64,000 nucleotides of DNA, from NCBI GenBank assembly GCA_965204695.1, contig OZ242007.1, forward strand, positions 3,047,701 through 3,111,700, in the 5' to 3' direction. This document shows, piece after piece, positions 1 through 39,185 of the stretch. The notes beneath the pieces are model-generated. The model was not told the DNA's origin. It was given only the letters and a program-made list of their open reading frames with translations, and did not search any database. Position 1 is the first letter of the stretch. Each line of letters opens with the position of its first letter. Made by a program: the position numbers and the translations under genes. This DNA is from Arenicellales bacterium (lineage in GTDB: Bacteria; Pseudomonadota; Gammaproteobacteria; Arenicellales; JAHEKD01).

Positions 1-1395
1 ATTGATGCGTTACATGAGAACATAACCGCCGACCCCGGGTCTGTTGTGGAGTTGACGACCCAGGCCTTGTCTCAACTCGAAAAGCTTGGGCGAAATCTGA
101 ATGCCGTTTCCCATGTCGCAAGAGACGACGCTATAGACAGAGCAGAGGGACTTCGAGATACGCTTATGCGAGGCGACATCGGTTATACCGGACCACTGTT
201 CGGGATACCGGTTGCACACAAGGATCTTTTCATGCGATCAGGCTGGCCGTGTGAGGGTGGTTCCAGGACTTTCGCTGGCCACATCGCCCAACGAACCGCA
301 TTTACCATTAACAGGCTGGATCACCAGGGTACGGTAGATTGTGCACGTCTGACATCCGTCGAATTAGCACTCGGAACGACCGGACATAATGCTTACGCGG
401 GAACACCGACCAACCCATGGAATCCGCAATATATTTGTGGCGGTTCTTCATCAGGTTCCGCAGCAGTCGTGGCAGCCGGCATCATTCCTGCCTCCCTCGG
501 AACTGACACTGGCGGTTCGGTTCGTCTGCCTGCTGCTGCCTGCGGACTCGTTGGTGTCAAACCAACGCATGGATTGGTGGGTCGGAGCGGCGTTTTTGCG
601 CTGTCTCCAAGCCTCGATTGTGTTGGGCCTCTGACACGCTCAGTACGCGATGGTGCAATCGTATTGCAGGCTATTGCGGCGACGGACGATAAGGACTCCA
701 GTTCCATCTCCCACAATTTACCCGACCTTCTACACTCGCTTGAATCCGGAGTCGCCGGTCTTCGAGTCGGATGGCCGACCAATCATTTCTTCGAAGATGT
801 AGAGGCATCGGTTGCCGACGGTATTGATGGCGTCTTTCGCCTTATGGGCCGCCTTGGTGCCGAATGTCTTGATATTGAAGTTCCCGGGATCGAAACTGCC
901 AATGCGATGAACATGCTCATCACTGCTGTAGAGGGTGCTTCGCTGCATCATGAGAGAATTCTCGAAAATCACAATGATTTTGAGGCGCAGACGCTATCGC
1001 GCCTCTTGGTCGGTTGCTTTGTACCGGCCCGCGACTATTACAATGCACTTGCTAACCGTGCCTGTGTGGCCAAACGTGTTTTGGCGGATACTTTCACCAA
1101 GGTTGATGTCGTGATCACGCCGGTCTGGCCTTATCCACTACCAACAATCGAAGAGAGCGACGTGGGTGCGAATCCTGAAGCCGCTGCTATGGTGCAACGC
1201 TCCGGTCATAACACACGACCGGTGAATTACCTGGGTTTTCCTGCTGTGAACCTGCCTATCGGCTTTGATACCAATGGCCTGCCTGTCAGCGTGCAGCTAG
1301 TTGGAGCGCCTTATTCAGAACCGAAACTTCTACGGATCGCTAGTGCGCTTGAGCGAGAACTGAATTTCTGGAGTTCACGGCCCAGGTTATTCTAG
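1..1395 (+). CDS. Amidase-signature family amidase (GatA-like). The frame is open to base 1, so the true start may lie upstream; the first in-window start is at 46.
   Basis: 449-aa ORF with the amidase-signature block GGSSSGSAAVVAAG and an upstream PVAHKD lysine motif. Length is typical of the family. Confidence 0.85.
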   Translation: MDALHENITADPGSVVELTTQALSQLEKLGRNLNAVSHVARDDAIDRAEGLRDTLMRGDIGYTGPLFGIPVAHKDLFMRSGWPCEGGSRTFAGHIAQRTAFTINRLDHQGTVDCARLTSVELALGTTGHNAYAGTPTNPWNPQYICGGSSSGSAAVVAAGIIPASLGTDTGGSVRLPAAACGLVGVKPTHGLVGRSGVFALSPSLDCVGPLTRSVRDGAIVLQAIAATDDKDSSSISHNLPDLLHSLESGVAGLRVGWPTNHFFEDVEASVADGIDGVFRLMGRLGAECLDIEVPGIETANAMNMLITAVEGASLHHERILENHNDFEAQTLSRLLVGCFVPARDYYNALANRACVAKRVLADTFTKVDVVITPVWPYPLPTIEESDVGANPEAAAMVQRSGHNTRPVNYLGFPAVNLPIGFDTNGLPVSVQLVGAPYSEPKLLRIASALERELNFWSSRPRLF

Positions 1396-1558
1396 TGCGC
1401 CCGAAGCTGTAAAATAAGACCGGAATTAAAGGATGCGGACCTTTGACTTATCAATAGTGGCTACCTTTAGCAAGTTTGTTATTAAGGCATTGCTCACATT
1501 CTATAGCCGATAATTGTTGAAGATTAGACTCAAGCTCTGGAGTTAATCACTGGGTTAT

Positions 1559-1722
1559 GTGGGATTTATTCTATTGTTTATATAGAAGTAAGTGCAGTAA
1601 ACGCCCAAAATTAATGTTTGTAAGTTACTGATATATAAAGAATTTAAAAACAAATTCTTTTCTCATAATGATGGGGTCGCTAGTTCGGATCTAGCCATAG
1701 CCACCATAAAATCAATAACTTA
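1559..1722 (+). repeat. Direct repeat copy A (~165 bp) upstream of the giant gene; includes a tRNA-Met 3' half
   Basis: Aligns by eye at roughly 85-90% identity with 8585-8748. Shared hairpins are CAGTAA..TTACTG and AAAGAATTT-N6-AAATTCTTT. Weaker similarity extends to 1501 versus 8523. Confidence 0.85.
1662..1706 (+). pseudogene. tRNA-Met(CAU) 3' half fragment (anticodon loop to CCA), copy A
   Basis: CTCATAATGATGGGGTCGCTAGTTCGGATCTAGCCATAGCCACCA. The 17-nt CTCATAATGATGGGGTC matches the E. coli elongator tRNA-Met anticodon-loop region. The T-arm is GCTAG/CTAGC. No 5' acceptor strand (GGCTATG) or D-arm lies upstream. Confidence 0.8.
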
Positions 1723-1868
1723 CGTTGTACCCTGATGATAACCCAAAAATGCCACTGGGATTTATTTGGGTTAAAAACTTGTAAATTCTCGCAATTTCGT
1801 TATCCAAATTGGTGCTCTTTAATCCATTTTGTGTCTGTTTTTCTGGGTTTTTCGTCTAAATTTAGCCG

Positions 1869-1893
1869 AGCACATCACCAGAAATGATGGGGT
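1869..1893 (+). pseudogene. Degenerate tRNA-Met anticodon-arm-like remnant
   Basis: AGCACATCACCAGAAATGATGGGGT resembles AGCACATCACTCATAATGATGGGGT of elongator tRNA-Met. The CATCA/TGATG stem is kept, the loop is mutated, and no T-arm follows. Confidence 0.35.
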
Positions 1894-2058
1894 TGTTGAT
1901 AACGAATATGTTAGTTCCATTTGTTCCCGGTAGTGAAGGTGCTGATGTTTTCTGCAACAATTGTATACGTTTGTTTTTTTTCGTTTTAATAATTCTAAGA
2001 TATACTGCCCTATTGGGATAGGGAAAAAACAATTTTTTAATTAGGAGTCTTAATAATA

Positions 2059-5000
2059 ATGTTCAAACTACGATATATTCTCGCCAAGCATATTCTTCAC
2101 ACTATTCTCTTTGCCCAACTATTTACAATGTATCTGGCCCAAGCAGCGCAGGGGCCTGGATTGGGAAATCTTAATTACAATCCGTCAGAATTATTTACCC
2201 AAATATCAATACCTGTTGTTGATGATACAACGGGGATTCTTCCACCTGATTATCCTAATCGAAAGCATTTTGGCGTTAATGTAATGACTATGCTTAATGG
2301 TTATATGATAGGGGTGTTTGCGCCTGATAGTGGCGGAGGACCAGGTGGATGGATAGCTTTGGATGTCTCTAATCCGAGGAATCTTAACTTGGTTAAAACA
2401 ATATATGAGCCGGATACGTTTAATAGTAATCGAACAGGTAACGGCCTAAGGACAATTGATTTCCGCGAACCTCATTCGTTTGGGTTAAGTGAAAACAGTC
2501 ATATTGCAATTCAAACAGGGCGCGGGATTGAGATATGGGACTGGTCTGATGTTAATAATCCAGTACAAGTTTCAAAGCTGGCAATACCTGGTGTAAATTT
2601 TGGTGACTATAATAATGTTTCCTGGCAGTTGTTTTGGCAAGCACCCTATCTCTACGTGGCGAGAGGAAACGCGGGTTTGACAATTGTTAATACCTCGGAT
2701 TTGACAAATCCATCGATTGTGAAAACAGTATCTACTAGTGAGCTAGGGGGATTTAATATTGGGCCAGTTTTTGTACTTGGCAATCAACTCTTTGTCTCTA
2801 GTATGGAAACCACAGCCGGTTTTTCAATCCTAAATATCAGTGATCCTACTAACCCAATACTAGAAAAAAGTATTCAGTCACTACCAGGCAATTACTACGC
2901 TTCATGCTGGGATGGAGTTTATGCATACTTTGGGGGGCGGTCTCCAACAATTCCACTACGTGCCTATGACACCACGACGAATCCAATGCAGCTTGTGAAT
3001 GGCTCAATTTCAGGGTTTAGTAATCTTTACTGCAATGGACAAGATGATAAGCTTTTTTTGGGTAATCAAGATGAAATTGTCGCGATTGACGTTTCATCAA
3101 GTCAGAACTTTTCTGTATTGGGATCGGGGTCACTAAATGCCGTATCGTCCGATGTAGATCATGGGCAGGTTTTTCCGTTCGGGAATCTAGTTTGGGTTGG
3201 AAATGATCATGGTTCAGGGAGTGGATTAATTGCTCATCAAACATTGCCTGATACAGCCCCACCTGAAATTGTAGTAACTAATCCAGCCGCAAACGCAACC
3301 GATCAACCTGTCACGTCAAGAATCGGTATTGCATTGTCGGATAGTATTTTAATGGAATCGGTGAATAGTAGTACATTTGCCGTGATAGAGACTGCCACAA
3401 ATACTCAGATTGCTGGTAATTACAGTGTCAACTTGGGGTTTGTTAATTTTACACCCTCGGTCCCGTTAGTAGATGATGCTACTTATGAAGTCATCCTTGA
3501 TGGAATCCAGGATTTTGCAGGAAATTCTTTGCCCAACAGTAATTTCTTTTTTTCTACCGGGTCCTCAATAAACCACCAAATTGATATATCACCACGGTCT
3601 AATGCATTGACGCTCGAAACAGTAACATTTTCAGCAAATGCTGCGCCGATAAGTACTGGTGGGGTGGTTGAATATTCATGGGACTTTGGAGACGGCTCTA
3701 CTACAACACCTTTTTCCCAGTCATCTACAGCTTTGCATGCCTATTCTCAACCAGGTCACTGGAATGTCATCGTTACCGTGAGAGAAAATAATATCATCAC
3801 AACTAAATCAATTATCCAGACTGTTCATAATCCTGTTACCAGTAGTACTCCCACTACGGTAAGTACGATAGTTGCTAGTGATTCTATGGTGGTTGCAGTC
3901 AATGAAGATGCTAATACTGTCACTGCAATACAAAAGTCTGCACCCTTTTCCAAAATTTGGGAATCCGGCGTTGGGAAGCAACCCAGAAGTCTGGCGATTG
4001 CCCCCAATGGAGAAATTTGGGTTGTTAACCAGCAAAGCGATGATATTTCTATTCTTGATCCAAACGGGAATCTACTTACCAGTGTACAGCTTCCACGTGG
4101 CTCTCAGGCCTTTGGTATTGTGTTTGCTCCTGACGGATGTTGCGCCCTTGTCAGTTTGCAAGGAACCGGAGCATTATTGAAAATTGACCCGGCGAGCAGA
4201 TTGCAAACAGGCATGATTCAAGTAGGAATGTCAGCCAGAGGAATTGCCGTAGATAGTCAGTCACAAATTGCTTATGTAACGCGTTTTATCTCACCGCAAA
4301 CCCATGCTGAAGTTATCAGTGTGGATATTGCTTCGATGTTAGTAAACAATGTTATCCAGTTACAAAAAGATGTGACAACGATAGATGGCAGTGACCGCAG
4401 CCGTGGTATTCCTAATTACTTAAATTCGATTACAATTTCTCCTGATGGCCTGAAGGCATGGATAGCTTCGAACAAAGCGAATGTAGAGCGCGGAGTATTC
4501 AATGATAATAATCCGGTAAACGCATTGACGTTTGAGACAACAATTCGGGCTATAGCCTCACAGATTGATCTTGGCATGCAAGCGGAAATACCTTCCATGC
4601 AGATGGATATCGATAACCGAGCACAACCAAAGGCGATTATATTCAGTGATGTAGGCGATTATGTGTATATTGCTTTGGAGGGGCAAAATTCTATCGAAAT
4701 AAGAGATGCATATAACAACCAACGTGTCAGTGAAGTCAGCCAAACAGGCCTGGCACCTCGAGGTCTGGTCAAATCAAACAATCATCTGTTTGTTCATAAC
4801 TTTCTGAGCCGGACCATTTCGATATTTGATGTGACACAGGTTGAAGTGCCAAATGGCACAAGAGAAATAACCCAAGCTGGGTTCACTGAATTAGTAGCAA
4901 ACGAAGCACTTCACCCAAGAGTGTTGAAAGGCAAGCAAATCTTCTACAACGCCAGTGACCCTCGCATGACAAGGGATGGTTATATCTCGTGTGCCAGCTG

Positions 5001-8000
5001 TCACACTGATGGTGATACTGATAATCGGGTTTGGGACTTTACTGATCGAGGTGAAGGTTTAAGAAACACGATACAACTTTTAGGGCGAACGGGACTGGGT
5101 CATGGTAGAGTACACTGGACTGCAAACTTCGATGAAATTCAAGATTTTGAGAACGATATTAGATCGGGTTTTGGTGGTGTTGGGTTTCTGAGCGACAATC
5201 AGTTTGAGCAAACACAAGCGCCGCTTGGTAACCCCAAAGCAGGTTTAAATAATGATCTGGATAACCTGGCATTCTATGTGGGCAGTTTAAATAAATTTCC
5301 CAAAAGTCCATATCGAGAATCAAATGGTGTTTTAACGCCTGAAGCACAGCTTGGTAAAAATTTATTTTCCAGCCAAGGGTGTGATGGATGTCATTCCGGT
5401 GATTTATTTACAGATCTAACACGGCACGATGTTGGTACAATCCAGGCTTCATCAGGACAGAGTAATGGCCAATCTTTATCTGGAATTGGTATAGATACAC
5501 CAACGTTAATCGGTATCTGGCAAACGGCCCCTTATTTTCATAATGGGCAGGCACAAACATTGGATGATGTTTTATTGACGGGTACGGAACACTTCGTTTC
5601 AAATGAGGCAGATAGAAACAATTTAATCGCTTATTTAAACCAAATCGAATACGAAGGCCCAGAAATTATAGTGCCGGATCCTCCTGCAGAGTCCTCATAT
5701 GTTTATTTGAGTGATCTTGATGAAGAATCTTCAACCAACGGGTGGGGCCCCTTTGAAAAGGATCGTAGTAACGGCGAACAGGGTACGAGTGATGGTAATG
5801 TGATCTCCATCGCTGGCGAACAATTTTTGAAAGGTCTTGGCGTTCACGCCTACTCTGAGATTGCTTATCAGTTTAATGCGGGTCAATACGATCAACTTCT
5901 TGCAACGATTGGTGTTGATGATGAGACCAGCAACAGAGGATCGGTAAGGTTTCAGGTTCTGATTGATAATGTAATCAGTTATCAAAGCGTCATTATAAGT
6001 GGCGGAGAAAATGGAGTGGCTATATCAGTGGATATTCCACTAACCGCGACGGAAATAAAACTGATTGTTGATAACGCTGGAGATGGCGATGCGTACGATC
6101 ATGCTGACTGGGCTGATGCAAAACTTAGAGTACATGTTCCAGATGAACCCGTAAATACATCTCCTGTTGTATCAGCTGGAGCAGATCAAACAGTCAACTT
6201 GACTGATGCAGTCATCTTAAACGGTTCTATTACAGATGATGGCCTGCCAAATCCCCCATCAAATGTGGTGGCCAGTTGGTCGTTGGTTAGTGGCCCGGGG
6301 GGCGTATCGTTTGCAGATAGTTCTGCTCAAGTGACTTCAGCAACATTTTCAGTATCGGGGCAATACACGTTGAGATTGACCGCGACAGATACGGAACTGA
6401 CTGCCAGTGATGACATGATTGTTATGGTTCAGGGTTCAATTTCCGGCAGTGCCTGGTGTTTGAGATTGAAAGCATTGTCAGAAATTAATGCTAATCCATG
6501 GGCTTCCGTTGCAGAAATCGGACTTGTTGATCAATCGGGGCAGCTTATTGATCAATCCAGCTGGAGCATTCATTCTGTCAGTAGTGAAGAACTGGACGGC
6601 GAAAATGCTCCGGCAATATCAGCCATTGATGGTAATCCAAATTCGTTCTGGCACAGCAAGTGGTTTCAGCAGACGGCGCAGCCTCCACATATTTTGGAGA
6701 TAAATCTCGGTGACTCTCATTCACTTGCACAATTGCGTTACCTGCCCAGACAGGACGGCAATGTTAATGGAACAATAAAAGACCATCAAATTTATATCAG
6801 TCAACAATCTGATTGCAGTAATTGGCAATTGGTCGCAAGCGGTACCTGGTCTTCCGATACCAATGAAAAAATTGCTGACTTAGATACTGCATCAGGTAAC
6901 AATGAGCCGCCTGTTACAACTAATCCAGGCAACCAAACCAATCAGGAAGGTGATAATGGCATCAGTCTCGTTATTTCGGTCAGTGATCCTGATAGCGATC
7001 CATTGACTTATGATGCCGCAGGATTGCCTGAGGGCTTATCAATTAATACGTCAACAGGTGTCATTTCAGGTAATTTAGATTTTGATTCAGCTGGGGTTTA
7101 TAACGTAACAATAAGTGTTGATGATGGTAATGGTGGTGCGGATAGCGCTAATTTCACCTGGACAGTGAATAACGTTAATAGAGCGCCCGGCTTTGACACG
7201 TTAATTGGCGATCAAGCGAATGATGAAGGTGATTCGATTAATTTATCAGCCAGTGCAATGGACCCTGACACGGGTGATAGTTTAACCTACAGTGCTACAA
7301 ATTTACCGGATGGTGTATCGATTAATACAGGTACGGGTGTGATTACGGGTACCTTAAGTGCGGTTTCGGCAGGCAGCTATAACGTTGATGTGACTGTTTC
7401 AGATGATAACTCAACCGATGGTCAAAGTTTTGTGTGGACGGTTAATGATGTCAATCAGCCGCCCTCCATAACTAATCCAGGCAATCAGGTTAATCAGTTA
7501 TCTGATACGGTAAGTCTAACTGTGGTGGCGAGTGACCCTGATAGTGGTGATGTTTTGACTTTCTCAGAATCTGGACTGCCCGATGGATTGAATATAGATT
7601 CGAATACAGGCGAGATCAGCGGAATATTCGTGGCGGCCAATGTGTTTAACGTCACCATAACTGTTGATGATGGGAATGGTGGTATGGATGATGCGAGTTT
7701 CACCTGGACAGTGAATGATTCTGGTAACGTTCAAGAAACTATTTATGTTAGTTCTACATCAGGTGGTACGGTAGGTGGTGTGTCGTTTGCCGATGAAGAC
7801 ATTCTGGCGTTTGATGTCGCTGCGGAAACATGGTCAATGTATATAGATGGCTCTGATATAGGATTAAGTGATTCAGGCTCTCGCGATATGAATGCCTTCA
7901 CTATACTGGCAGATGACAGTATCGTTTTCAGTGTCGTTGGCGCAACAACATTGCCAGACGTTGGCAGCGTGGATGATTCAGACCTGATTCGATTTATTCC

Positions 8001-8502
8001 TACCTCGACTGGAACCACTGCAGCAGGCACTTTCGAGTTTTATTTTGACGGATCGGATGTTGGATTAAGTAGCAATGGCGAGGACATAGATGGCGTTAAC
8101 ATACTAGCCAATGGTAATATCTTAATCAGTACCTTGGGTGGCCACCGTGTTACGGGTGCATCAGGCTCCGACGAAGATTTACTCTTATTCACGCCAACAA
8201 CGCTTGGTGTGGATACATCGGGGACGTGGTCGGCTTATTTTGATGGGTCTGATGTTGGTTTAGGTGGTGTGAGTACTGAAGATGTTTACGCAGCTTGGGT
8301 GGATGATGTGACCGGAGATATTTACTTGAGTACTCGTGGTGCATTTTCGGTGACGGGATTAAGTGGTAATGGGTCAGATATTTTTATTTGTACGCCAACT
8401 TCTCTCGGGACGTCAACCAGCTGTAGTTACACCTTATTTTGGGATGGATCGGCATTTGGATATGGTTCAGAAATCATGGATGGGCTATTTATTCAGCGCT
8501 AA
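2059..8502 (+). CDS. Giant secreted multidomain protein (2147 aa): beta-propeller repeats, Ig/PKD domains, a di-haem peroxidase-like module, carbohydrate-binding-like modules, cadherin-like repeats and a novel C-terminal repeat
   Basis: Single uninterrupted ORF with AGGAG upstream and a hydrophobic N-terminal signal-like segment. Motifs seen: LVIVD-like (GLTIVNTSDLTNP), PKD (WDFGDGS), two CxxCH (4990-5004, 5380-5394), NPCBM-like (GWGPFEKDRSNGE), discoidin-like, three cadherin-like repeats and four DGSDxGL repeats. Confidence 0.8.
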   Translation: MFKLRYILAKHILHTILFAQLFTMYLAQAAQGPGLGNLNYNPSELFTQISIPVVDDTTGILPPDYPNRKHFGVNVMTMLNGYMIGVFAPDSGGGPGGWIALDVSNPRNLNLVKTIYEPDTFNSNRTGNGLRTIDFREPHSFGLSENSHIAIQTGRGIEIWDWSDVNNPVQVSKLAIPGVNFGDYNNVSWQLFWQAPYLYVARGNAGLTIVNTSDLTNPSIVKTVSTSELGGFNIGPVFVLGNQLFVSSMETTAGFSILNISDPTNPILEKSIQSLPGNYYASCWDGVYAYFGGRSPTIPLRAYDTTTNPMQLVNGSISGFSNLYCNGQDDKLFLGNQDEIVAIDVSSSQNFSVLGSGSLNAVSSDVDHGQVFPFGNLVWVGNDHGSGSGLIAHQTLPDTAPPEIVVTNPAANATDQPVTSRIGIALSDSILMESVNSSTFAVIETATNTQIAGNYSVNLGFVNFTPSVPLVDDATYEVILDGIQDFAGNSLPNSNFFFSTGSSINHQIDISPRSNALTLETVTFSANAAPISTGGVVEYSWDFGDGSTTTPFSQSSTALHAYSQPGHWNVIVTVRENNIITTKSIIQTVHNPVTSSTPTTVSTIVASDSMVVAVNEDANTVTAIQKSAPFSKIWESGVGKQPRSLAIAPNGEIWVVNQQSDDISILDPNGNLLTSVQLPRGSQAFGIVFAPDGCCALVSLQGTGALLKIDPASRLQTGMIQVGMSARGIAVDSQSQIAYVTRFISPQTHAEVISVDIASMLVNNVIQLQKDVTTIDGSDRSRGIPNYLNSITISPDGLKAWIASNKANVERGVFNDNNPVNALTFETTIRAIASQIDLGMQAEIPSMQMDIDNRAQPKAIIFSDVGDYVYIALEGQNSIEIRDAYNNQRVSEVSQTGLAPRGLVKSNNHLFVHNFLSRTISIFDVTQVEVPNGTREITQAGFTELVANEALHPRVLKGKQIFYNASDPRMTRDGYISCASCHTDGDTDNRVWDFTDRGEGLRNTIQLLGRTGLGHGRVHWTANFDEIQDFENDIRSGFGGVGFLSDNQFEQTQAPLGNPKAGLNNDLDNLAFYVGSLNKFPKSPYRESNGVLTPEAQLGKNLFSSQGCDGCHSGDLFTDLTRHDVGTIQASSGQSNGQSLSGIGIDTPTLIGIWQTAPYFHNGQAQTLDDVLLTGTEHFVSNEADRNNLIAYLNQIEYEGPEIIVPDPPAESSYVYLSDLDEESSTNGWGPFEKDRSNGEQGTSDGNVISIAGEQFLKGLGVHAYSEIAYQFNAGQYDQLLATIGVDDETSNRGSVRFQVLIDNVISYQSVIISGGENGVAISVDIPLTATEIKLIVDNAGDGDAYDHADWADAKLRVHVPDEPVNTSPVVSAGADQTVNLTDAVILNGSITDDGLPNPPSNVVASWSLVSGPGGVSFADSSAQVTSATFSVSGQYTLRLTATDTELTASDDMIVMVQGSISGSAWCLRLKALSEINANPWASVAEIGLVDQSGQLIDQSSWSIHSVSSEELDGENAPAISAIDGNPNSFWHSKWFQQTAQPPHILEINLGDSHSLAQLRYLPRQDGNVNGTIKDHQIYISQQSDCSNWQLVASGTWSSDTNEKIADLDTASGNNEPPVTTNPGNQTNQEGDNGISLVISVSDPDSDPLTYDAAGLPEGLSINTSTGVISGNLDFDSAGVYNVTISVDDGNGGADSANFTWTVNNVNRAPGFDTLIGDQANDEGDSINLSASAMDPDTGDSLTYSATNLPDGVSINTGTGVITGTLSAVSAGSYNVDVTVSDDNSTDGQSFVWTVNDVNQPPSITNPGNQVNQLSDTVSLTVVASDPDSGDVLTFSESGLPDGLNIDSNTGEISGIFVAANVFNVTITVDDGNGGMDDASFTWTVNDSGNVQETIYVSSTSGGTVGGVSFADEDILAFDVAAETWSMYIDGSDIGLSDSGSRDMNAFTILADDSIVFSVVGATTLPDVGSVDDSDLIRFIPTSTGTTAAGTFEFYFDGSDVGLSSNGEDIDGVNILANGNILISTLGGHRVTGASGSDEDLLLFTPTTLGVDTSGTWSAYFDGSDVGLGGVSTEDVYAAWVDDVTGDIYLSTRGAFSVTGLSGNGSDIFICTPTSLGTSTSCSYTLFWDGSAFGYGSEIMDGLFIQR
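6901..7716 (+). repeat. Three tandem ~92-codon repeats inside the giant gene, encoding cadherin/dystroglycan-type Ig-like modules
   Basis: The recurring block PxxTNPGNQxNxxxDxxSLxxxASDPDxxDxLTYSAxGLPxGLSINxxTGxISGxL...VTVxDGNGGxDxxxFTWTVND occurs three times. Confidence 0.8.
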
Positions 8503-8584
8503 TAAAACTAGCAACCCTAATGCTATAAGCCGAAATCTATAATATCTGTAGCTAAGTTCGTTGGTTAACAGGTTGGGTTAAAAT

Positions 8585-8748
8585 TGGGATTTATTCTATA
8601 GCTTTATTAGGGTTATATGCAGTAAACACCCAAAATTGATATTTGTAAGTTACTGATAAGTAAAGAATTTAAAAACAAATCCTTTTCTCATAATGATGGG
8701 GTCGCTAGTTCGAATCTAGCCATAGCCACCATAAAATCAATGACTTAT
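8585..8748 (+). repeat. Direct repeat copy B (~165 bp) downstream of the giant gene; includes a tRNA-Met 3' half
   Basis: Partner of 1559-1722. The same internal hairpins are present, and the same ~20 nt follow the CCA (TAAAATCAATRACTTA). Confidence 0.85.
8687..8731 (+). pseudogene. tRNA-Met(CAU) 3' half fragment, copy B
   Basis: CTCATAATGATGGGGTCGCTAGTTCGAATCTAGCCATAGCCACCA. It differs from copy A by one base in the T-loop (TTCGAAT versus TTCGGAT). No 5' half lies upstream. Confidence 0.8.
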
Positions 8749-11317: not shown

Positions 11318-12503
<1,186 letters not shown>

Positions 12504-12992: not shown

Positions 12993-13313
12993 ATGAAAAA
13001 ACATATGTACAATGTACATATGAAGAATCTCGAGTTTGAGTGGGATAAGTGTAAGAACAGTACGAATACTAAAAAACATGGCGTCTCGTTTGAAGAAGCA
13101 CGAACTGTTTTCTATGATGAATACGCTGTACAGTTCTTTGATCCTGATCATTCAGATGATGAAGAGCGATTTATCCTACTCGGCCTGAGTCATAAATTAA
13201 ATACCTTGGTAGTGTGTCATTGCTTTAGAGAAGCTGAAACTATCGTTCGTATCATTTCCGCTAGAAAAGCAGATATTGATGAATCCGAAACTTATTGGAG
13301 TTATAGAAAATGA
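12993..13313 (+). CDS. brnT: Cassette 4: BrnT-family ribonuclease toxin (DUF497)
   Basis: The N-terminal FEWDxxKNxxNxKKHGVSFEEAxxVFYD motif is present. It overlaps the downstream antitoxin by 4 nt. Toxin-first order matches brnTA. Confidence 0.8.
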   Translation: MKKHMYNVHMKNLEFEWDKCKNSTNTKKHGVSFEEARTVFYDEYAVQFFDPDHSDDEERFILLGLSHKLNTLVVCHCFREAETIVRIISARKADIDESETYWSYRK

Positions 13314-13525
13314 GAGATCATTATGATTTTTCAAAGATGAAGGGGAAGAAGAACCCTTACATCAAATATTTAAAGCAACCTGTCACAATGCGACTGGATA
13401 AGGATTCTATTGCGTATTTTCGATCATTATCGAAAGAGTCAGGTATCCCGTATCAAACATTAATCAATTTGTATCTAAGAGATTGTGCAGCAAATAAAAG
13501 AAAGCTTAATATGAGTTGGCAATGA
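13310..13525 (+). CDS. brnA: Cassette 4: BrnA antitoxin
   Basis: 71 aa with a YDFSKMKGKKNPY start and a C-terminal RHH/CopG-like segment. It is translationally coupled to brnT. Confidence 0.75.
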   Translation: MRDHYDFSKMKGKKNPYIKYLKQPVTMRLDKDSIAYFRSLSKESGIPYQTLINLYLRDCAANKRKLNMSWQ

Positions 13526-13528
13526 AAA

Positions 13529-13585
13529 TTCTAACAAACCAAGGCAGCGTACGCGTAACCGCGCCGCTGCTTTCAAACGTTATAC
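13529..13585 (+). other. attC site 4 (57 bp)
   Basis: TTCTAAC-AAACC-AAGGCAGCG...CGCTGCTT-TCAAAC-GTTATAC, with one extrahelical base. Confidence 0.85.
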
Positions 13586-13600
13586 GCAAAAATAATCCAA

Positions 13601-14257
13601 ATGACTGAAAACAGTAACATTAAATTTTATAAAACTATTAATAGAAAAAAATTTACTCCAAAATATGTAGCAGAAGTGGGTGTATGGCATCCAAAGACAT
13701 CAAATATATATTCGTATATTCAAGATGGAATTAAAACTATGTTGGTTGAGCCAGATCCAAAATCAATAGAGTTAATAAAATCCAAATTCAACAAACCCAA
13801 TGTAACACTTCATGAGGTTGCAATATGTGATTTTGATGGGGAGGTGGAGTTGTGCCAAAGAGAAAGCTCAACCTTTGTAAGCAACCTTAAAAGTAGCCCA
13901 GCATTAGTAAATGATAATTGTAATATTGAACAATCTGAAAAATTTGTAGCCACGGCTATAAAATTTTCAAAAATAGATAACAACAAAATTGATTTAATAT
14001 CTATTGATACCGAAGGCAGTGAGTGGTTTGTTATCAAAAATATGTTAAGCAGACCCGTTGTAATATCAATTGAAACGCATGGAGGAATGTACATTAATCC
14101 ATATATCAAAGAGATAAAACAATGGATGAAAGATAATAATTATTCTTTATTATATAAAGATAAGAGTGATTCTATTTATGTTCTAAACAATAAAATTAAA
14201 ATTACAGTTTTTGATAGAATAAACCTTGTAAAACAACAATTATTTATTCTGACCTAG
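13601..14257 (+). CDS. Cassette 5: FkbM-family methyltransferase, with its 3' end replaced by an IS terminus
   Basis: The IDTEGSEW motif is characteristic of the FkbM family. The last codons (CTG ACC TAG) come from the IS left end, which starts at 14250. Confidence 0.65.
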   Translation: MTENSNIKFYKTINRKKFTPKYVAEVGVWHPKTSNIYSYIQDGIKTMLVEPDPKSIELIKSKFNKPNVTLHEVAICDFDGEVELCQRESSTFVSNLKSSPALVNDNCNIEQSEKFVATAIKFSKIDNNKIDLISIDTEGSEWFVIKNMLSRPVVISIETHGGMYINPYIKEIKQWMKDNNYSLLYKDKSDSIYVLNNKIKITVFDRINLVKQQLFILT

Positions 14258-14324
14258 CCCCGGAAAGTTACACCAGTTGATGAGATAGGATTTGGTTTAC
14301 TATTTAGCTTAAAGGAGCCAACAT

Positions 14325-20379: not shown

Positions 20380-21510
20380 ATGTCTAGCTCATCACTTGGA
20401 ACACATTTACAAGAAGGTGTCGTTGGATTTCCGACAGCACTCGCCACCTCCATTGGATTGATTATAGCTGGAGCAGTCCTACTCACTGCAACTACTGGCT
20501 TTGGGATAGACACCATAAAAGCAGCCAATGCAGAGCTGGTCAATCAGCATACCCAACTGGAACTAAGCCATGTGCACGGTGACGGTACGCTTTCATCATC
20601 AGATGCGCAGCGATTCATCGTCACAGCCAGCAGTCTATTGTCGTCATATTACCCAAGGTATGCCGGTTATTATGAAAAAATGATTGGTTTATATACCCAC
20701 ACTTCCAGTCAATTTTCAGTTTACAACACAAATGCAATTTCCTGCGCTCCACGGGAATCGCTTTTTGTGATTGATGGTATTTTGGATAACAATACAATTC
20801 TTGCCATTAAGGAACATACAACAGATACAGAGGGTTTTACTGAACACATGTTTGCTCTTTGTCATTTGCTGGGTATTCAGTTTATGCCGAGAATTAAAGA
20901 CCTTAAAGCACAACAACTTTATCGGATAGATAAAACCAATTCTTATGGCAAACTGGATTCGCTGCTCACGAAAACAGCTCCTCTCGAACAAATAACCGAA
21001 CAGTGGGACAATATGATTCGTGTTATAGCTTCTCTAAAGAATAAATTATGTCCTGCTCATGAGGTGATTCGCAGACTATCCAAAGGTTCTCCATCAGATA
21101 AATTGTCCAAGGCATTTACGCTGCTGGGACGTGTTATTAAAACAGAATATATCCTGAGATACCTGACAGACAGTGATTTGAGAGATAAAGTACAGCGTCA
21201 ATTAAACAAGGGGGAGCACCGTCATCAACTTGCTCGCTGGATATTTTTTGCAAATCAGGGAAAATTCCAGACTGGTGATTACGAGGAAATCATGAACAAG
21301 GCAAGTTGCCTAAGCCTGGTTTCAAACGCTGTTTTATATTGGAATACAGTTAAGATCACAGAAATTATTAGCCAGCTCCGGGCGAATGGAGAGCAGATCA
21401 GTAACGAAACGTTATCTCATATTTCTTTACTGCCGCACAAACACGTCATTCCAATGGGTACTTATTTTACTGAGGAGCTTGTTTACCAGCCAGGACCAGA
21501 CGAGCTGTGA
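20380..21510 (+). pseudogene. Chimeric ORF: ~45 aa of an amino-acid-permease-like N-terminus fused to the C-terminal ~330 aa of a Tn3-family transposase
   Basis: The N-terminus GVVGFPTALATSIGLIIAGAVLL is APC-permease-like. From ~20515 it reads AELVNQH...GDGTLSSSDAQRF...HTTDTEGFTEHMFALCHLLGIQFMPRIKDL, the Tn3 TnpA DDE region. Confidence 0.75.
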
Positions 21511-21579
21511 GAAATTACGGTTTAAAGGCAATATTTGTGCTCAAACCGTAAATTTTGACACGAATGTGGCTGATACCCC
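20515..21579 (+). mobile_element. Tn3-family transposon remnant (3' third of tnpA plus a terminal IR)
   Basis: The tnpA tail is followed by the 38-bp terminal repeat. There is no resolvase, left IR or 5' two-thirds of tnpA. Confidence 0.75.
21542..21579 (-). repeat. Tn3-family 38-bp terminal inverted repeat
   Basis: Read inward it is GGGGTATCAGCCACATTCGTGTCAAAATTTACGGTTTG, with the GGGG start typical of Tn3-family IRs. It lies 32 bp after the tnpA stop. Confidence 0.7.
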
Positions 21580-21591
21580 TAGGTGAACTAT

Positions 21592-22071
21592 CTATTTAAA
21601 GAGTCGATCGTCCCACCATATCCTTCGTTCGCGTGAGACGGTTATTTTAGAAAACTCTTGGTGTTCAGTATTAATCACGATATTGTGATCCAACCGTGCA
21701 ACAACAGAGGGGACGATTAGAATGAGTGACCGATTCTGAGAATACCACTGTGAGCCAAATTCCCGTGCTTTCATTGCATTTTTCTCATACCAGCCTGGGA
21801 CAGAATCTGTTGTGATTTCTTCATAACTAACCCCAGCCGGGATTGTAATAGTTACAAAACATTGATTCGGTGGCATTTCACCGAGTCGAATCAGTTTTTC
21901 CAGTACAGCCGTTGAATAGTATTTTGATGCATAAATCACGGCTTGCATGGGTTTATTCCATCTTCCTGGATAGAACTTTGCGCCCTCGGGACTGAATATG
22001 GGATAGTGTCCTTCGCTATCACCAATGCGATAGGCCAACAGCGGCTTTTTGAGTTTTCGGTGTTGATTCAA
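21592..22071 (-). CDS. RES-domain toxin (NAD+-targeting, MbcT/ParT-like family)
   Basis: 159 aa. YRIGDSEGHYPIFSPEGAKFYPGRWN is typical of RES-domain proteins. It overlaps the antitoxin gene by 4 nt. Confidence 0.8.
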   Translation of the reverse strand: MNQHRKLKKPLLAYRIGDSEGHYPIFSPEGAKFYPGRWNKPMQAVIYASKYYSTAVLEKLIRLGEMPPNQCFVTITIPAGVSYEEITTDSVPGWYEKNAMKAREFGSQWYSQNRSLILIVPSVVARLDHNIVINTEHQEFSKITVSRERRIWWDDRLFK

Positions 22072-22544
22072 ATAGCGACGCTGGCTTGCGCTTCTTTTAA
22101 TAGCAAAATGACCGTTTCCGCACCGGCATTAGAAGAGGCCATTACTTCAAACGGGGTTTTACTATCGAGTAGGGGGTTTGGGCGCGTCATAAAACGCCGA
22201 ATTTTCGCATCGTCCCCATGAAATACCAGTGCGGCCTGATCAATAACCCGACTGAGTTCAAAAAAGCGTTCACTACTTTCACGTGATAACTTGCGGTCTT
22301 TTTTCTTGCGTGCACGACTCAATGTAGATTCTGAAACAATCTTATGTATGGCTTTGGGCTGGAATTCATTAATAAACGCCGTTAGTGATCCCACATTATT
22401 AATGGATAATCCACTTGCTATCGTTTCCGATAGATTTAAATAATCGACGGAACGAGCTTCATCAATGTCCAAGAGCATGGCTAAACGGACCGCTTCATCG
22501 CCGGGAACCTGGTTAGGTGTCATATAGTAATTTAACGCGTGCAT
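22068..22544 (-). CDS. Xre-type antitoxin with a C-terminal DUF2384 toxin-binding domain (MbcA/ParS-like)
   Basis: The C-terminus FMTRPNPLLDSKTPFEVMASSNAGAETVILLLKEAQ matches the DUF2384 signature. Its position upstream of the RES toxin fits. Confidence 0.8.
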   Translation of the reverse strand: MHALNYYMTPNQVPGDEAVRLAMLLDIDEARSVDYLNLSETIASGLSINNVGSLTAFINEFQPKAIHKIVSESTLSRARKKKDRKLSRESSERFFELSRVIDQAALVFHGDDAKIRRFMTRPNPLLDSKTPFEVMASSNAGAETVILLLKEAQASVAI

Positions 22545-27452: not shown

Positions 27453-28634
27453 ATGACTAAACGATCCGTTTTAATGTCTATTTTTGGGGCTGTCGGCATC
27501 ATCGGTCTAGCAATTGGTGTGGTGATTATCGCGATTGAACAAAAACCAGCGCCCGAAATCCAAGCACGCTCCACCAGCTTGTTAAAGGTGGACGTGCATC
27601 CCGTTTCGGTTGCGACGTATTCCCCGATCATTCAGGCCCAGGGGACCGTAACAGCGCGATATTCGGGCAATCTGGTTGCACAAGTCGAAGGGCAGGTGCT
27701 TGACGTATCGGATCAGTTGTTGTCCGGGCATGACTTCAAACAGGGCGATGTATTAGTCAAACTGGACGACACACGATATTTAAGTGCAAAGGCGAGTGCA
27801 CAAAGTGAGCTGGCCGCCCGAGAGCGCGATTTGACGGAAGAACAATTGCGGGCCCAACAAGCTCAAACGGACTGGAAACGCGCTGGTATTAAAAACCAAA
27901 AACCGTCGGCATTGACATTGCGTGAGCCGCAACTCAAAAGCGCCCAGGCTCAGGTTGCAGCGGCAAATGCAGCACTGACACTGGCCCGTCAAAATCTAAC
28001 CCATACACAGGTGAGGGCACCTTATGCCGGTTCAGTGGTTGCCCGTCAGGTCAGCCCCGGTGATTATGTACAAATCGGACAGACTCTGGCTGAAATTTAC
28101 GCAAATCACGCACTCGAAATAACCTTGCCGTTAAGTCAGGCCCAGATTAATCTGCTCGGCAATCGAAATACCATTCATCCGACCACAATTACCGTGAGTT
28201 CAATAGACGATCCTAAGCGGCAATGGACTACGCGTAGCTGGCGACTGGGGCGTACGATTGATCAGACCAACCGTTGGCAACCATTGATTGTAGAACTGGA
28301 AACCGGTCCGTCAACTGCGCCATTACCGGGTGAATTTTTACAAGCCAGCATTCAAAGTCGACAAATGAATGACTTAATTGAATTAAATCAATCATCATTA
28401 GCCCGTGATGGCCGCGTCTGGTTTGTCAATGATCAGAATGAATTAGCGTTTTTTAATGCGTCGGTGGTCTTTCGGCTTGATGATAACATTTATGTCAACC
28501 CGCCCGATCATTCTACCCAATTAAATATCGTGCGTTATCCACAAACTGATTTTCTGACTGGCACGAAAGTTGAGCCGGTGTTCGATGCTGAACTGAGCCT
28601 CACGGAACAAAATCTTAAGGGTGATACACTATGA
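27453..28634 (+). CDS. RND efflux periplasmic adaptor (membrane fusion protein)
   Basis: It has an N-terminal anchor and a coiled-coil hairpin (AQSELAARERDL...AQVAAANAALTLARQNL), then the THTQVRAPYAGSV lipoyl/barrel motif. Confidence 0.85.
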   Translation: MTKRSVLMSIFGAVGIIGLAIGVVIIAIEQKPAPEIQARSTSLLKVDVHPVSVATYSPIIQAQGTVTARYSGNLVAQVEGQVLDVSDQLLSGHDFKQGDVLVKLDDTRYLSAKASAQSELAARERDLTEEQLRAQQAQTDWKRAGIKNQKPSALTLREPQLKSAQAQVAAANAALTLARQNLTHTQVRAPYAGSVVARQVSPGDYVQIGQTLAEIYANHALEITLPLSQAQINLLGNRNTIHPTTITVSSIDDPKRQWTTRSWRLGRTIDQTNRWQPLIVELETGPSTAPLPGEFLQASIQSRQMNDLIELNQSSLARDGRVWFVNDQNELAFFNASVVFRLDDNIYVNPPDHSTQLNIVRYPQTDFLTGTKVEPVFDAELSLTEQNLKGDTL

Positions 28635-31390
28635 ATGATTCGTTAAACCAAGGCACCGTGGCCTGGTTTGCACGCAATCCGGTGGCCGCCAACCTGTTAA
28701 TGCTGGTGATACTGTTAATGGGCATTGTCACCGCCTTAAATTTACGCACGGAGTCGTTCCCGGCCATTGCACCCAACACGGTCACCGTTGATGTGACCTA
28801 CAACGGCGGCAGTCCTAAAGATAGCGAAGAGGGCGTGGCGGTTATCATTGAACGGGCACTGGACGGTGTGGCCGGGATCAAACGCATTACCTCAACTTCA
28901 ACCGAATCGGGTGTGACGGTCGGAGTGCGGATGCTGGATGGGTATTCACTAAACCGCTTGATGGAAGACGTTAAACTTAAGGTGGACAGCATCAATAATC
29001 TACCGGACCAAACGGAGCGTCCGATCATTCGCCAACAGCAAGAAGAACGTCATGTTATCTACGTGCAATTGTATGGCGAGGTTGACGAAAAAACACTCAA
29101 AGAAGCCGCGAACCGGGTTCGCGATGAGTTACTTTTATTAGAAGACGTTAATTTGGTCACGAATTATGGCGAACGTGATTATGAAATTAATATCGAAGTC
29201 TCGGAACAAAATTTACGCCGCTATGGATTAACGTTCGACGAGATCGTCAACGCTGTGCGCAACAACTCCATTAATCAATCAGCCGGAGCAGTGCAGACGA
29301 CGGCTGGACGGATTACCTTACAAACCCGTGAGCAAGCTTATTACGGTCAGGAATTTGGTGAGATTTCGTTGCGTGCGGCCGTCAGCGGTGCTGAGATAAA
29401 ACTTAAGGACGTGGCCCAAATCCTAGGCGGATTTGTGAATGAACAGGTGTTCTCAACCTTTCAAGGTCAACCCTCAATTGGACTGGACGTGCAGTTGATC
29501 GGTCAGGAAAGCATTACTCGTGCGTCTGAACGGGTACAACAACGAATTGACGAATTATAACGGGCAAGTTGGTTACCGCAATCGGTCAACATTGACACTT
29601 GGTATAACCAAGCGGCGTTTATTGAGGATCGCTTAGGTTTAATGCTGAAAAATGCCGCCCAGGGCATGTTACTGGTGTTGGTAATACTCGCGCTTTTCAT
29701 GAATTTAAAGCTAGCATTGTGGGTGGCTTTGGGCATCCCGGTCTCGTTTGCAGGCACATTATGGTTGATGGGGCCAGAGTATCTCAATTATTCGCTCAAC
29801 GAATTGACTACCTTCGGCTTTATTATCGTACTGGGCATTGTGGTGGACGATGCTATTGTCATTGGTGAGAATATCTTTACCGCTAAACGTCAACACGGCC
29901 CGGGGTTGGCTGCGACCGTTCGAGGGGCAAAAGAAGTGGCGGTACCGGCTACGTTCGGGGTGTTAACAACAGTAGCCGCGTTTTATCCGTTAACACTGAT
30001 CAAAGGTGAAATGGGCAGTTTGTTTGCACAAATTGTCGTGATTGTCATGGTGTGTTTGTTGTTTTCATTGGTGGAATCCAAGTGGATTTTACCTGCCCAT
30101 TTAGTGCCTGTTGATGTCTCCAGAACTAAAAAAGCCCGGGGCATAGCTGGGTTATGGCAATGCCTACAACTAAAAATTGATCAGGGATTACGGGTTGTTA
30201 TCGAACGAGGCTATTTGCCATTGTTAAAGCGGATGATTCATTGGCGTTATTTGGCTTTTGCTGGGTTCATTGCCGTATTCATCCTAACTGTGGGCATGAT
30301 TCCTGCCGGGAAAGTACGCAGTGTGTTTTTCCCGGATATTCAAACTGGGGTGGTATTCGCCGATGTCACGTTCAACAAAGGGATCGGGGCAGAGCGTGCC
30401 AATCATATGGCGCAACAGATCGATCAGGCTTTGAAAGTTGCGAGTGATGCGCTGAAACAGGAGTTATCACTGAAGGTTGATCCGGTACAGGCGGTATTTA
30501 CCTATGTCACTGACGATCAATCAGCCAATGTGATTGGCGAGTTGGCGCCTGCCAGTGAGCGACGTTATCCGGTTACAGAGGTGCTTAATCGCTGGCGGGA
30601 ATTAAGCGGTGACTTAACGGGGGTTAAATCGGCTGATTTTTACAGTGATTTTAGCGGCGAAGGTGACATTGAAGTGGAAATTAGGGGTTCAAATTTCAGT
30701 GTTTTATCTCAGGCGGCTCACCAACTGAAGCAACACTTACGTGATTTCCAGGGTATTTATGATGTTCAAGATAGTTTGGCCGACACCACCTCCGAATTGA
30801 TCGTTCATCTCAAACCACCGGCCATGGCTTATGGGTTAACCCAAGCCGATGTCACCAGCCAATTACGTCAAGGGTATTACGGTGAAGTGGCCCAACAGAT
30901 TCAACGTGGACGCGATGAAATCGATGTGCGGGTCCGCTATCCGTATCGTCAGCGCCAAAGCGTTACTGATCTTGAGAACATTCACATTCGTACTCCTGAC
31001 GGGGTATCGGTGCCGTTTACCACCGTGGCAACATTGGAATTAACCGATTCACTCAGCGAAATCAAACGGATCGATAAACACCGTGAGGTGACCGTCAGTG
31101 CTAGGGTCGATAAGGCAATTGCGTCATCGTCGGAGATCACCCAAAACTTACAATCTAACTTTTTCGGGCAGTTGGTGAGGGATTTTCCTGGTATTAAAAT
31201 CAATCTTGACGGCGAGGCCGCCGAAGAAGCAGATGCCTCCGCGTCCTTACTTAAAGGGTTTATTTTATCTTTGATGTTGATTTATGCCTTACTGGCGATT
31301 CCACTGAAATCCTATATGCAGCCGCTGGTGATTATGTCGGTGATTCCATTTGGGATAATCGGTGCGATCTTTGGACACTGGATAGTCTTT
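28631..31390 (+). pseudogene. RND permease (AcrB/HAE1-like) with an in-frame TAA and a deleted 3' end
   Basis: The same reading frame continues across the TAA at 29558-29560 (..RIDEL*RASWLPQSV..). Homology ends after ..IPFGIIGAIFGHWI (~31385), about 110 codons short of a full-length pump. Confidence 0.8.
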
Positions 31391-31398
31391 CTCTTTCC

Positions 31399-32124
31399 GT
31401 GTTGTTTTCAGGGTGTGTCGGTCGGACAGCCCTACAGGCTAATGAGAACAGCGCTCGAACATCAGCAGAGCATAACGATCCATTTGAAACCATTAATCGC
31501 TCCGTATATCGGTTTAATAGCAAAATCGATCAGTATGTGTTTAAGCCAATCGCCAAAACGTACCGAAAGATTACCCCTGATCCCGTTGAGAAGGGGGTAA
31601 GTAATTTTTTCGATAACTTGGGAGAGCCTGTCAATATGGTGAACAATGCCTTGCAAGGAAAATTAGACGATGCGGGGACCAGCGGTGGCCGCTTTATTCT
31701 CAATACCACCCTTGGGGTATTAGGAATTATCGATATGGCAGATAAGCTTGAGATACCCGACGTCGACGAGGACTTTGGTCAAACACTCGCCGTATGGGGC
31801 GTACCCAGTGGTCCATATTTAGTACTGCCGTTTTTTGGTCCACGTTATTTGCGCGGTACCAGTAGTTTTATCGTCGACAGAGCAGTGGATCCGCAAACTT
31901 ATGTTGGTGGCGATGCACGATTACCCTTAATCATTTTGGATACCGTCAATACACGGGCAGAATTCTTAGGGCAAGATGATTTTCTTGAGATGCAAATAGA
32001 TCCGTATATCTTTTTAAGAGAAAGCTATCAGCAACGACGCCAACTTGAAATTAAAGATACGGCAGCAGAACAGATTGATGATTTCGATGACGAGTTTGAA
32101 GAAGATGTGGCTGTGACACAATGA
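31399..32124 (+). CDS. mlaA: MlaA/VacJ-family lipoprotein; the 5' end is clipped at the deletion junction
   Basis: The lipobox remnant is LFSGC, followed by NDPFETINRSVYRFNSKIDQYVFKPIAKTY. Only ~4 residues precede the lipobox Cys if the GTG at 31399 is used. Confidence 0.7.
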   Translation: MLFSGCVGRTALQANENSARTSAEHNDPFETINRSVYRFNSKIDQYVFKPIAKTYRKITPDPVEKGVSNFFDNLGEPVNMVNNALQGKLDDAGTSGGRFILNTTLGVLGIIDMADKLEIPDVDEDFGQTLAVWGVPSGPYLVLPFFGPRYLRGTSSFIVDRAVDPQTYVGGDARLPLIILDTVNTRAEFLGQDDFLEMQIDPYIFLRESYQQRRQLEIKDTAAEQIDDFDDEFEEDVAVTQ

Positions 32125-39106: not shown

Positions 39107-39185
39107 GGGGCTAATTTTACCACAGATAGCCCCGAAAGCCTTATAAACAAAGGCTTTAACCAAAATCATCATGCCCATGTTAATG

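Follow-up and report, generated by a model that had tools for sequence, protein, structure and literature searches.

A giant-gene interval between attachment-site-like repeats with tRNA-Met 3' halves in an Arenicellales bacterium, with the look of an integrase-less module away from any tRNA gene

Why would a gene of 6.4 kb lie between two direct repeats that each carry one half of a tRNA-Met gene, in a place that holds neither the tRNA gene nor an integrase of its own? The question is raised by a 64,000-nt stretch of DNA from an Arenicellales bacterium (assembly GCA_965204695.1, contig OZ242007.1, forward-strand positions 3,047,701-3,111,700; hereafter the window, whose positions serve as coordinates throughout), in which a gene for a secreted multidomain protein of 2147 amino acids (2059-8502, + strand) is bracketed by two copies of an attachment-site-like repeat unit, here termed U (U_L and U_R for the left and the right copy). 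Of the source genome the analysis covered the 64-kb window, which was compared with contigs of other genomes (L003-L023). On balance we lean towards the view that the giant-gene interval is an att-flanked module without integrase, similar to a cis-mobilizable element (CIME), which would depend on an integrase encoded elsewhere. To us the structure appears to be of a known kind, unusual in that no tRNA gene is near it.

The original prediction for this locus, made from the letters of the window, described direct repeats of about 165 bp with 85-90% identity that bracket the giant gene and end in the 3' half of a tRNA-Met lacking its 5' half. The repeats are real: a repeat search aligns 1560-1722 with 8585-8747 over 163 nt at 89% identity, with a start-to-start distance of 7025 nt. 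The unit is nevertheless longer than described, about 222-225 nt, because an nhmmer profile built from all copies of U aligns 1501-1721 (229 bits) and 8524-8746 (224 bits), the outer 55 nt being more diverged. Both copies lie on the + strand and share the same anatomy. In U_L (1501-1722) an arm at 1501-1661 is followed by the 3' part of tRNA-Met at 1662-1706 and by the tail TAAAATCAATAACTTA at 1707-1722; in U_R (8523-8747) the arm occupies 8523-8686, beginning 21 nt past the stop codon of the giant gene, the tRNA-Met part 8687-8731 and the tail TAAAATCAATGACTTA 8732-8747. The arms (approximately 160 nt) are 86% identical between the two copies, and the identity rises to 97% within a block of 61 nt that opens with the first anticodon-loop base, reaches 16 nt beyond CCA and thus comprises the tRNA part plus TAAAATCAATRACTTA.

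The tRNA piece in U corresponds to nucleotides 32-76 of elongator tRNA-Met and runs from CTCATAA in the anticodon loop to CCA. Over these 45 nt, which lie at coordinates slightly off those first implied, the right copy is 100% and the left copy 97.8% identical to intact tRNA-Met genes, the mismatch being a G in the T loop at 1687. The intact genes came from a scan of one genome per species with a 34-mer covering T arm and acceptor, which returned 15 loci: 14 intact tRNA-Met genes, from 14 gammaproteobacterial genomes, and one non-tRNA match (L005), to which we return below. The intact gene of the relatives is 89.6% identical to E. coli genes annotated as tRNA-Met, with a median of two places per genome, a number that fits metT/metU, the elongator genes, better than the initiator genes. 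When the full tRNA was aligned locally to the arms of U, scores stayed at shuffle level and gave no 5' half, ARAGORN predicted no tRNA gene across the 64-kb window, and the window repeats had no Rfam match at gathering or at permissive thresholds. Derivation of the arm from the native upstream region of a tRNA-Met gene was also considered and rejected, as the arm has no similarity to the region upstream of the intact gene in the related Arenicellales contig L006; a supposed trace of such a region in the contig L016, GGCTATGAAGC, is at chance level.

A third tRNA remnant, predicted at 1869-1893, proved to be genuine and longer than claimed. It extends over 1868-1907 on the + strand, corresponds to tRNA positions 23-61 and scores 37 as against 31 for the best of 200 shuffles. 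Both strands of its anticodon stem are intact, and its four substitutions all fall in the loop, where CTCATAA has become CCAGAAA; the fragment is identical in L016. Interpretation of 1723-1907 as a third, decayed U was rejected, since beyond a 21-nt motif pair the similarity to the arm is at shuffle level (z = -0.4).

Does U have the layout of an attachment site beyond its tRNA part? Of the recurring motifs in the original prediction, GGGATTTATT indeed occurs three times in exact form in the 64 kb (at 1561, 1757 and 8586), whereas TGGGTTAAAA is exact only twice (1767 and 8574), the third 'GGGTTAAAA-like' copy at 1551 being the degenerate TGGGTTATGT. The motifs stand side by side, in each case on the + strand. 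A candidate arm-type pair in the right arm, TGGGTTAAAA-TT-GGGATTTATT at 8574-8595, ends 92 nt before the anticodon-loop segment, and its counterpart in the left arm, TGGGTTATGT + GGGATTTATT at 1551-1570, takes the homologous position. A further pair with the order swapped, GGGATTTATT + TGGGTTAAAA at 1757-1776, lies 51 nt past the left CCA and about 89 nt after the left anticodon loop, is conserved in L016 and would be a candidate P' arm-type site of the module; the left anticodon-loop segment has one 10-mer pair some 90 nt before it and another some 90 nt after it. In addition, the final 13 nt of each copy of U match the consensus WATCAANNNNTTR for integration host factor (IHF), with AATCAATAACTTA at 1710-1722 and AATCAATGACTTA at 8735-8747, both on the + strand; about 6 such matches would be expected in the window and 11 are present, the ends of the two repeats among them. 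As far as consensus matching can tell, this would be the layout of a lambda-type attP, in which the core has an IHF site next to it and is flanked on either side by direct arm-type repeats. The identity block, the IHF consensus at the ends and the flanking 10-mers thus lend support to the earlier proposal that the repeats are attR-type junctions of a P arm and a core.

The interval between U_L and U_R, of about 6.8 kb, is taken up by the giant gene, which a leader of 336 bp precedes and a spacer of 21 bp follows. As originally stated, it contains no integrase: in 1501-8747 the giant gene is accompanied solely by short open reading frames (ORFs) without recognisable product, and Pfam and NCBIfam scans detect no recombinase, relaxase or type IV secretion gene in the interval. 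The label 'adhesin-like' first given to the giant protein captures part of the picture and no more, because the protein combines beta-propeller/LVIVD, Big_5, PKD, di-haem cytochrome c peroxidase/MauG-like, NPCBM, F5/8 type C and Big_9 domains with three He_PIG domains. Its nearest non-identical homologues are found in Photobacterium and Vibrio (64% identity over 63% of the length), and L016 is the only other carrier found at more than 90% identity. The C-terminal third of the protein (F5/8C, Big_9, He_PIG) is missing from the Vibrionaceae homologues, and internal direct repeats at 6900-7716, about 550 nt apart and 73-83% identical, correspond to tandem He_PIG domains.

The original prediction took the interval for one cargo unit, and two comparisons support this. 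The metagenomic contig L016, which carries P0121, the only cluster mate of the giant protein, matches 1662-8650 of the window at 98.4% identity. Left of the tRNA piece it has genes for CoA-transferase, formyltransferase, FTHFS, Usp, AceK, ApbA and SBF instead of the amidase operon that adjoins U_L in the window, and its left arm is diverged and split by approximately 190 nt. The right arm is 100% identical to that of the window up to 8650, where an insertion sequence (IS) has entered. Between the two strains the left partner has thus been exchanged within the identity block. The cores of window and L016 differ at 4 sites (95% identity) and are no closer than those of any two U copies, and the switch can therefore be placed only within 1662-1722. 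The alignments support the notion that the giant-gene interval behaves as one unit, whose left partner would change by recombination inside the identity block.

The IS in the right arm of L016 (16597-18105) is 99.9% identical to a 1.5-kb IS with HTH and rve transposase genes at 59071-60578 of the window, which suggests that IS activity in the population is recent. It is followed in L016 by a fragment of a second IS, whose protein is 93% identical to the IS481-family transposase beside tRNA-Met in L006.

The second comparison concerns another cargo. L005, an Arenicellales metagenome-assembled genome, carries a full U, and extension of its contig (L021) reveals a second direct copy 7.46 kb away. 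The arm of this second copy (U_b) is 83-87% identical to those of U_L and of the other L021 copy (U_a) and 82% identical to that of U_R; its core ends after 20 nt. The L021 pair brackets a TetR-ABC-OEP-MFP-AcrB operon for resistance-nodulation-division (RND) efflux, which is unrelated to the giant gene, and again neither an integrase nor a tRNA gene is present in 20.5 kb. Further copies of U were sought in vain in the other loci examined, in JGI metagenomes (with the arm/core junction and with the arm), in viral contigs (4 patterns) and in plasmids. The AcrB gene in this U-flanked operon is split (L021 14850-17951), as is one in the window (see below), and similarity to the window operon is weak (71% over 114 nt of DNA). 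A T-stem variant, GGTAG for GCTAG, is common to a decayed core in L016 (9618-9640) and to U_b (L021 18083-18100), and may reflect a second allele of tRNA-Met or attP among these bacteria.

How might such units have come about? According to our proposal U is an attR-type junction, in which about 160 bp of P arm from an integrative element would have been joined to the last 45 nt of elongator tRNA-Met and a 16-bp tail, the joint lying at the first anticodon-loop base. A tyrosine integrase acting on an attP with a copy of the 3' part of the tRNA would recombine it with the tRNA-Met gene in the anticodon loop. We favour an att origin because the extent of the tRNA piece is what the identity block of an anticodon-centred attP leaves at attR (PMC4383910, PMC9897764); anticodon-centred attPs form one of the two main classes in the Islander collection, with 2083 of 3919 islands, and 3' fragments are found in 3760 (PMC4383910). 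The module would have retained an attL-like end (core and P') and an attR-like end (P and core) without the integrase. Recombination between the 61-bp identity blocks would then yield a circle of 7,025 bp and leave a single U behind. The circle would carry a rebuilt attP composed of the right arm, the core, the IHF site and the P' motifs, and the reverse reaction could insert it at any other U or at tRNA-Met. For this the integrase would have to act in trans from elsewhere in the genome; otherwise the module would be a fossil. With U_L abutting conserved backbone, the array would no longer be, or would never have been, at a tRNA-Met gene.

Related sequences illustrate the use of this target. 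L006 has an intact tRNA-Met gene with the same 3' half followed by TAAAATCAATG and then by genes for an IS481-family transposase and a tyrosine integrase. In other Gammaproteobacteria, too, tRNA-Met scars lie beside intact genes, and those of L014 and L015 share the boundary seen in U. L015 (6678-7302) contains a 40-nt tRNA-Met 3' scar approximately 505 nt downstream of the intact gene, L014 (about 2140-2290) a 5'-half scar that ends at CTCATAA some 115 nt upstream of the intact gene, and L003 (6683-6712) a 30-nt 3' scar. The scars in L003, L014 and L015 suggest that the anticodon loop of tRNA-Met is a widely used att site.

A number of points weigh against the att-module interpretation. The case from the motifs and the IHF sites is one of consensus matching alone. 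Neither a cognate integrase nor a circular form nor an empty site was seen for the giant-gene module, whose mobility we infer, and no clean empty site is definable for the L021 pair either, as its relatives L022 and L023 do not have the same DNA beyond the zinc-uptake operon that adjoins it. U_L meets conserved backbone at 1500|1501, where a simple attR has element DNA, and its left end lies within a few nt of the point at which similarity to the L021 copy begins. Likewise, the full (right) copy in L021 abuts the conserved zinc-uptake operon, and two relatives have no tRNA gene there and no U downstream of that operon. The att-module reading does not account for the way in which a unit of P arm and core came to lie at non-tRNA sites. 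The exchange between the strains could be RecA-dependent, taking place between 61-bp repeats, and not site-specific. Finally, only six copies of U from three genomes are known, the source genome being represented by the window.

Could the repeats then be the product of something other than a module of this kind? On the original prediction they belong to islands arrayed in tandem, with an intact tRNA-Met gene expected to the left of the window; the amidase operon would then be the cargo of the next island and the repeats would be attRs. Their orientation and anatomy are right for attR, Islander lists 125 tandem arrays at tRNA genes (PMC4383910), and the source sequence left of the window lies outside the data. 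The left flank itself speaks another language. Positions 1-1500 (+ strand) are conserved backbone, made up of the 3' part of an amidase gene (stop codon 1393-1395; Pfam Amidase, E = 3.6e-89) and a 105-nt spacer. The amidase gene is the last of a LysR-PALP-DctPQM-amidase operon which, up to 1500, is kept at 86-98% identity in four contigs reached via amidase homologues (L017, L018, L019 and L020), all with downstream DNA that differs from the window and without U downstream of the amidase gene. Window 1-1500 matches L019 7593-9092 at 91.3%, and U_L begins at 1501, directly where this similarity ends and L019 enters the end of a LysR gene; L020 matches 1-1388 at 97.6%, diverges at 1388 and has neither U nor the giant gene. 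The intact tRNA-Met gene that the original prediction expected at the locus is not found: the window has no tRNA gene, and in these four contigs the stretch of 4 to 10 kb that precedes the amidase gene has neither a tRNA gene nor an integrase. The original prediction had itself named such an absence as refuting, and by that measure, as far as the window and these relatives reach, its tandem-array part fails. Moreover, in the near-identical strain (L016/L020; ENA ERZ25070167) giant module and amidase each adjoin other DNA, and what Islander looks for, an integrase for each member and an intact tRNA gene, is missing. The high GC content of the amidase gene is no island signal either: at 54% it is gene-specific and, since it is kept in the relatives, the amidase was rejected as foreign DNA. 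We therefore regard a tandem array at a resident tRNA-Met gene as quite unlikely.

Slightly better, though still unlikely, is the possibility that U is a small dispersed repeat, a solo relic or something akin to a miniature inverted-repeat transposable element (MITE), with a tRNA-Met fragment in it by chance; ectopic homologous recombination, and not an integrase, would then have produced the pairs and the differences between strains. The left end of U is discrete, lying against backbone at 1501, with L021 homology starting within a few nt; copies occur at non-tRNA sites in two genomes; and the crossover between the strains falls in the best-conserved 61 nt, which RecA would also prefer. A MITE-like family or one of repetitive extragenic palindromes, the very finding that the original prediction had named as fatal to itself, is nevertheless hard to reconcile with terminal inverted repeats that score no higher than shuffled sequence, flanks without target-site duplications, two copies in 64 kb and none in two metagenome scans, four viral scans and plasmids. 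All copies seen belong to direct pairs around one operon, and the tRNA part has the exact extent of an att identity block, followed by the IHF consensus. The scars may also be passive passengers without a role at this site, old att junctions from the tRNA-Met locus of a donor that were brought in by a larger mosaic island of integron, IS and Tn3 remnants (approximately 1.5 to 39 kb). The window is full of mobile-element remnants from 9 to 39 kb, and backbone-like purine catabolism genes begin near 40 kb; a passive history would, however, leave unexplained why the left partner changes, within the identity block, in a strain that is 98.4% identical, and why the U-cargo-U layout recurs with another cargo, and we consider it quite unlikely as well. 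Far less probable still, to the point of being hardly credible, is a function of U as a small structured RNA whose 3' end resembles that of a tRNA, or as a split or permuted tRNA. The T arm and the 3' strand of the acceptor are intact, and the left copy has an AT-rich hairpin of 9 bp ahead of its tRNA part, but this hairpin is mismatched in three of four copies, the arm offers no partner for acceptor or anticodon stems, and one copy has no T arm at all. Furthermore, ARAGORN and Rfam give nothing, the consensus folds only weakly, at -16.5 kcal/mol for 230 columns, without a compensatory change in any of the 44 pairs predicted, and searches for promoters, terminators and small, excisionase-like ORFs around U_L and U_R found nothing in common, a promoter-like site included. 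None of these alternatives explains the paired, cargo-bracketing layout as well as the att-module reading does.

If the giant-gene interval is an att-flanked module, then the 6.4-kb gene of the giant secreted protein belongs to the accessory DNA, open to gain, loss or movement as a unit without a recombinase of its own, and fragments of tRNA halves far from tRNA genes can still mark mobile modules. Neither the window instance nor that in L021 would be caught by island finders that look for an integrase together with an intact tRNA gene. The same site around two unrelated cargos would also provide a small, testable system, with a site of 222 bp and a predicted circle of 7 kb, for the persistence and spread of integrase-less modules in marine Gammaproteobacteria. 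Should the module be only a fossil, it would be a routine island relic. A bolder version, which we think unlikely, would see in U a portable docking site, present at ordinary chromosomal positions in Arenicellales: single-operon modules of cargo plus U, with the giant secreted protein in the window and the RND efflux pump in L021 as cargos, would be shuffled between U sites and tRNA-Met by an integrase encoded elsewhere, amounting to an integron-like cassette system on a lambda-type, tRNA-derived att.

The surroundings of the module deserve a brief description. At the left, the end of the amidase gene looks like an insertion hot spot in the lineage because of an insertion in L017 and a breakpoint in L020. 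The former (L017 11505-12041) is a MITE-like insertion of about 537 nt with CTATAGTTATT... termini in the gap between amidase and LysR genes that is missing from the 97%-identical L019; the same CTATAGTTATT terminal sequence is found at L020 ~5610-5630, where L020 departs after the amidase gene. About 8 kb downstream of the amidase gene L020 has a tRNA-Leu(CAG) gene on the - strand with a DUF6538 ORF beside it (13470-14322), which could be an integrase remnant, DUF6538 being an integrase-associated domain, and a tRNA-Leu island may fill the post-amidase site in L020. As an explanation of the hot spot such an island was rejected, since no tRNA-Leu repeat is present at the amidase end of L020 or in the window.

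To the right of U_R, and outside the unit, lies a frameshifted intI pseudogene (9250 to ~10250, - strand), which is, as the original prediction had it for the neighbourhood, the only tyrosine recombinase, here in the whole 64-kb window. Its C-terminal two thirds match TIGR02249 (262.8 bits, model positions 102-315) and include the IntI-specific insert ALYRKYPSASKSLAWQFVFPS, while six-frame translation places the N-terminal part in other frames with stops. As the integrase of the island it was rejected: it is an integron integrase and only 21% identical to the L006 integrase beside tRNA-Met. With it begins a mosaic of mobile-element remnants at 9-39 kb, in which the intI pseudogene and IS110-family, IS5-like and IS66 elements lie together with part of a Tn3 transposase gene, genes of toxin-antitoxin pairs and an AcrB gene in two pieces. 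The pseudogene belongs to a degenerate chromosomal integron, whose cassette array extends rightwards from ~10.3 kb (10300-~20000). Among the short ORFs of the array, 12993-13313 encodes a BrnT toxin and 13601-14257 an FkbM methyltransferase. The three copies of a 41-nt repeat, at 10816, 12500 and 13534, may represent attC sites, and an IS110-family transposase gene (11318-12259, - strand) has been inserted into the array. Further to the right, a shortened Tn3-family transposase (376 aa, DDE domain only) stands beside a RES-Xre toxin-antitoxin pair (20380-22544), the AcrB-type RND pump gene is split into 28631-29560 and 29642-31600, and IS5-like (DDE_Tnp_1_3; 33714-34622) and IS66-family (37487-39178) transposases lie near the apparent right limit of the mosaic. 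From about 40 kb the backbone-like purine catabolism genes follow, among them those for xanthine dehydrogenase, HIUase and urate oxidase (40-57 kb).

How does the proposed module compare with known systems? With integron cassettes it shares a cargo unit followed by a recombination site, the possibility of arrays and a recombinase outside the unit, and a degenerate integron is found 0.5 kb away. U, however, shows no attC-type imperfect palindrome or fold and lies on the 3' side of intI and not on the attI side, and L021 is without intI within 20 kb. VSP-II, the Vibrio seventh pandemic island II of V. cholerae at tRNA-Met (PMC5900727), uses the same type of target gene, and the nearest homologues of our cargo are from Vibrionaceae; yet VSP-II has att sequences of 14 and 16 bp and an integrase of its own (PMC5900727), whereas U in the window has a 61-bp identity block that starts at the anticodon loop and a conserved 160-bp arm. 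The tRNA islands of Islander resemble the locus in their displaced 3' tRNA gene fragments that begin at the anticodon loop, both on the + strand here, and in an identity that continues beyond the 3' end of the tRNA. They differ in that the window has no intact tRNA-Met gene and the interval no integrase, and in that the module has a fragment at each of its ends, where an Islander island pairs the gene with a single fragment.

The closest likeness is to CIMEs, which are defined by having kept attL and attR and lost the genes for integration and transfer (PMC5704250). CIMEs and tandem accretion were, according to the works cited there, first described for elements related to ICESt1/ICESt3 of Streptococcus thermophilus (Pavlovic 2004 and Bellanger 2011, cited in PMC5704250). 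As in a CIME, the segment lies between direct attL- and attR-type sites and the module contains neither integrase nor transfer genes; direct repeats with a core are present (61-nt blocks at 97% identity), and P-arm motifs mark the right end of the module, P'-type motifs its left. Like a CIME, too, it would be movable only with the integrase of a related element, a mobility to which the other left partner in the 98.4%-identical L016 lends indirect support, and tandem structures would form by recombination between shared cores. Different from CIMEs, which sit at the target of the parent integrative and conjugative element (ICE), such as the 3' end of fda or a tRNA gene, the module has no target gene, its left site abuts backbone, and it bears no remnants of ICE genes or of those of integrative and mobilizable elements. 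Its cargo, moreover, is tightly packed, with the arm starting 21 nt past the stop codon, and the layout of U recurs with another single-operon cargo.

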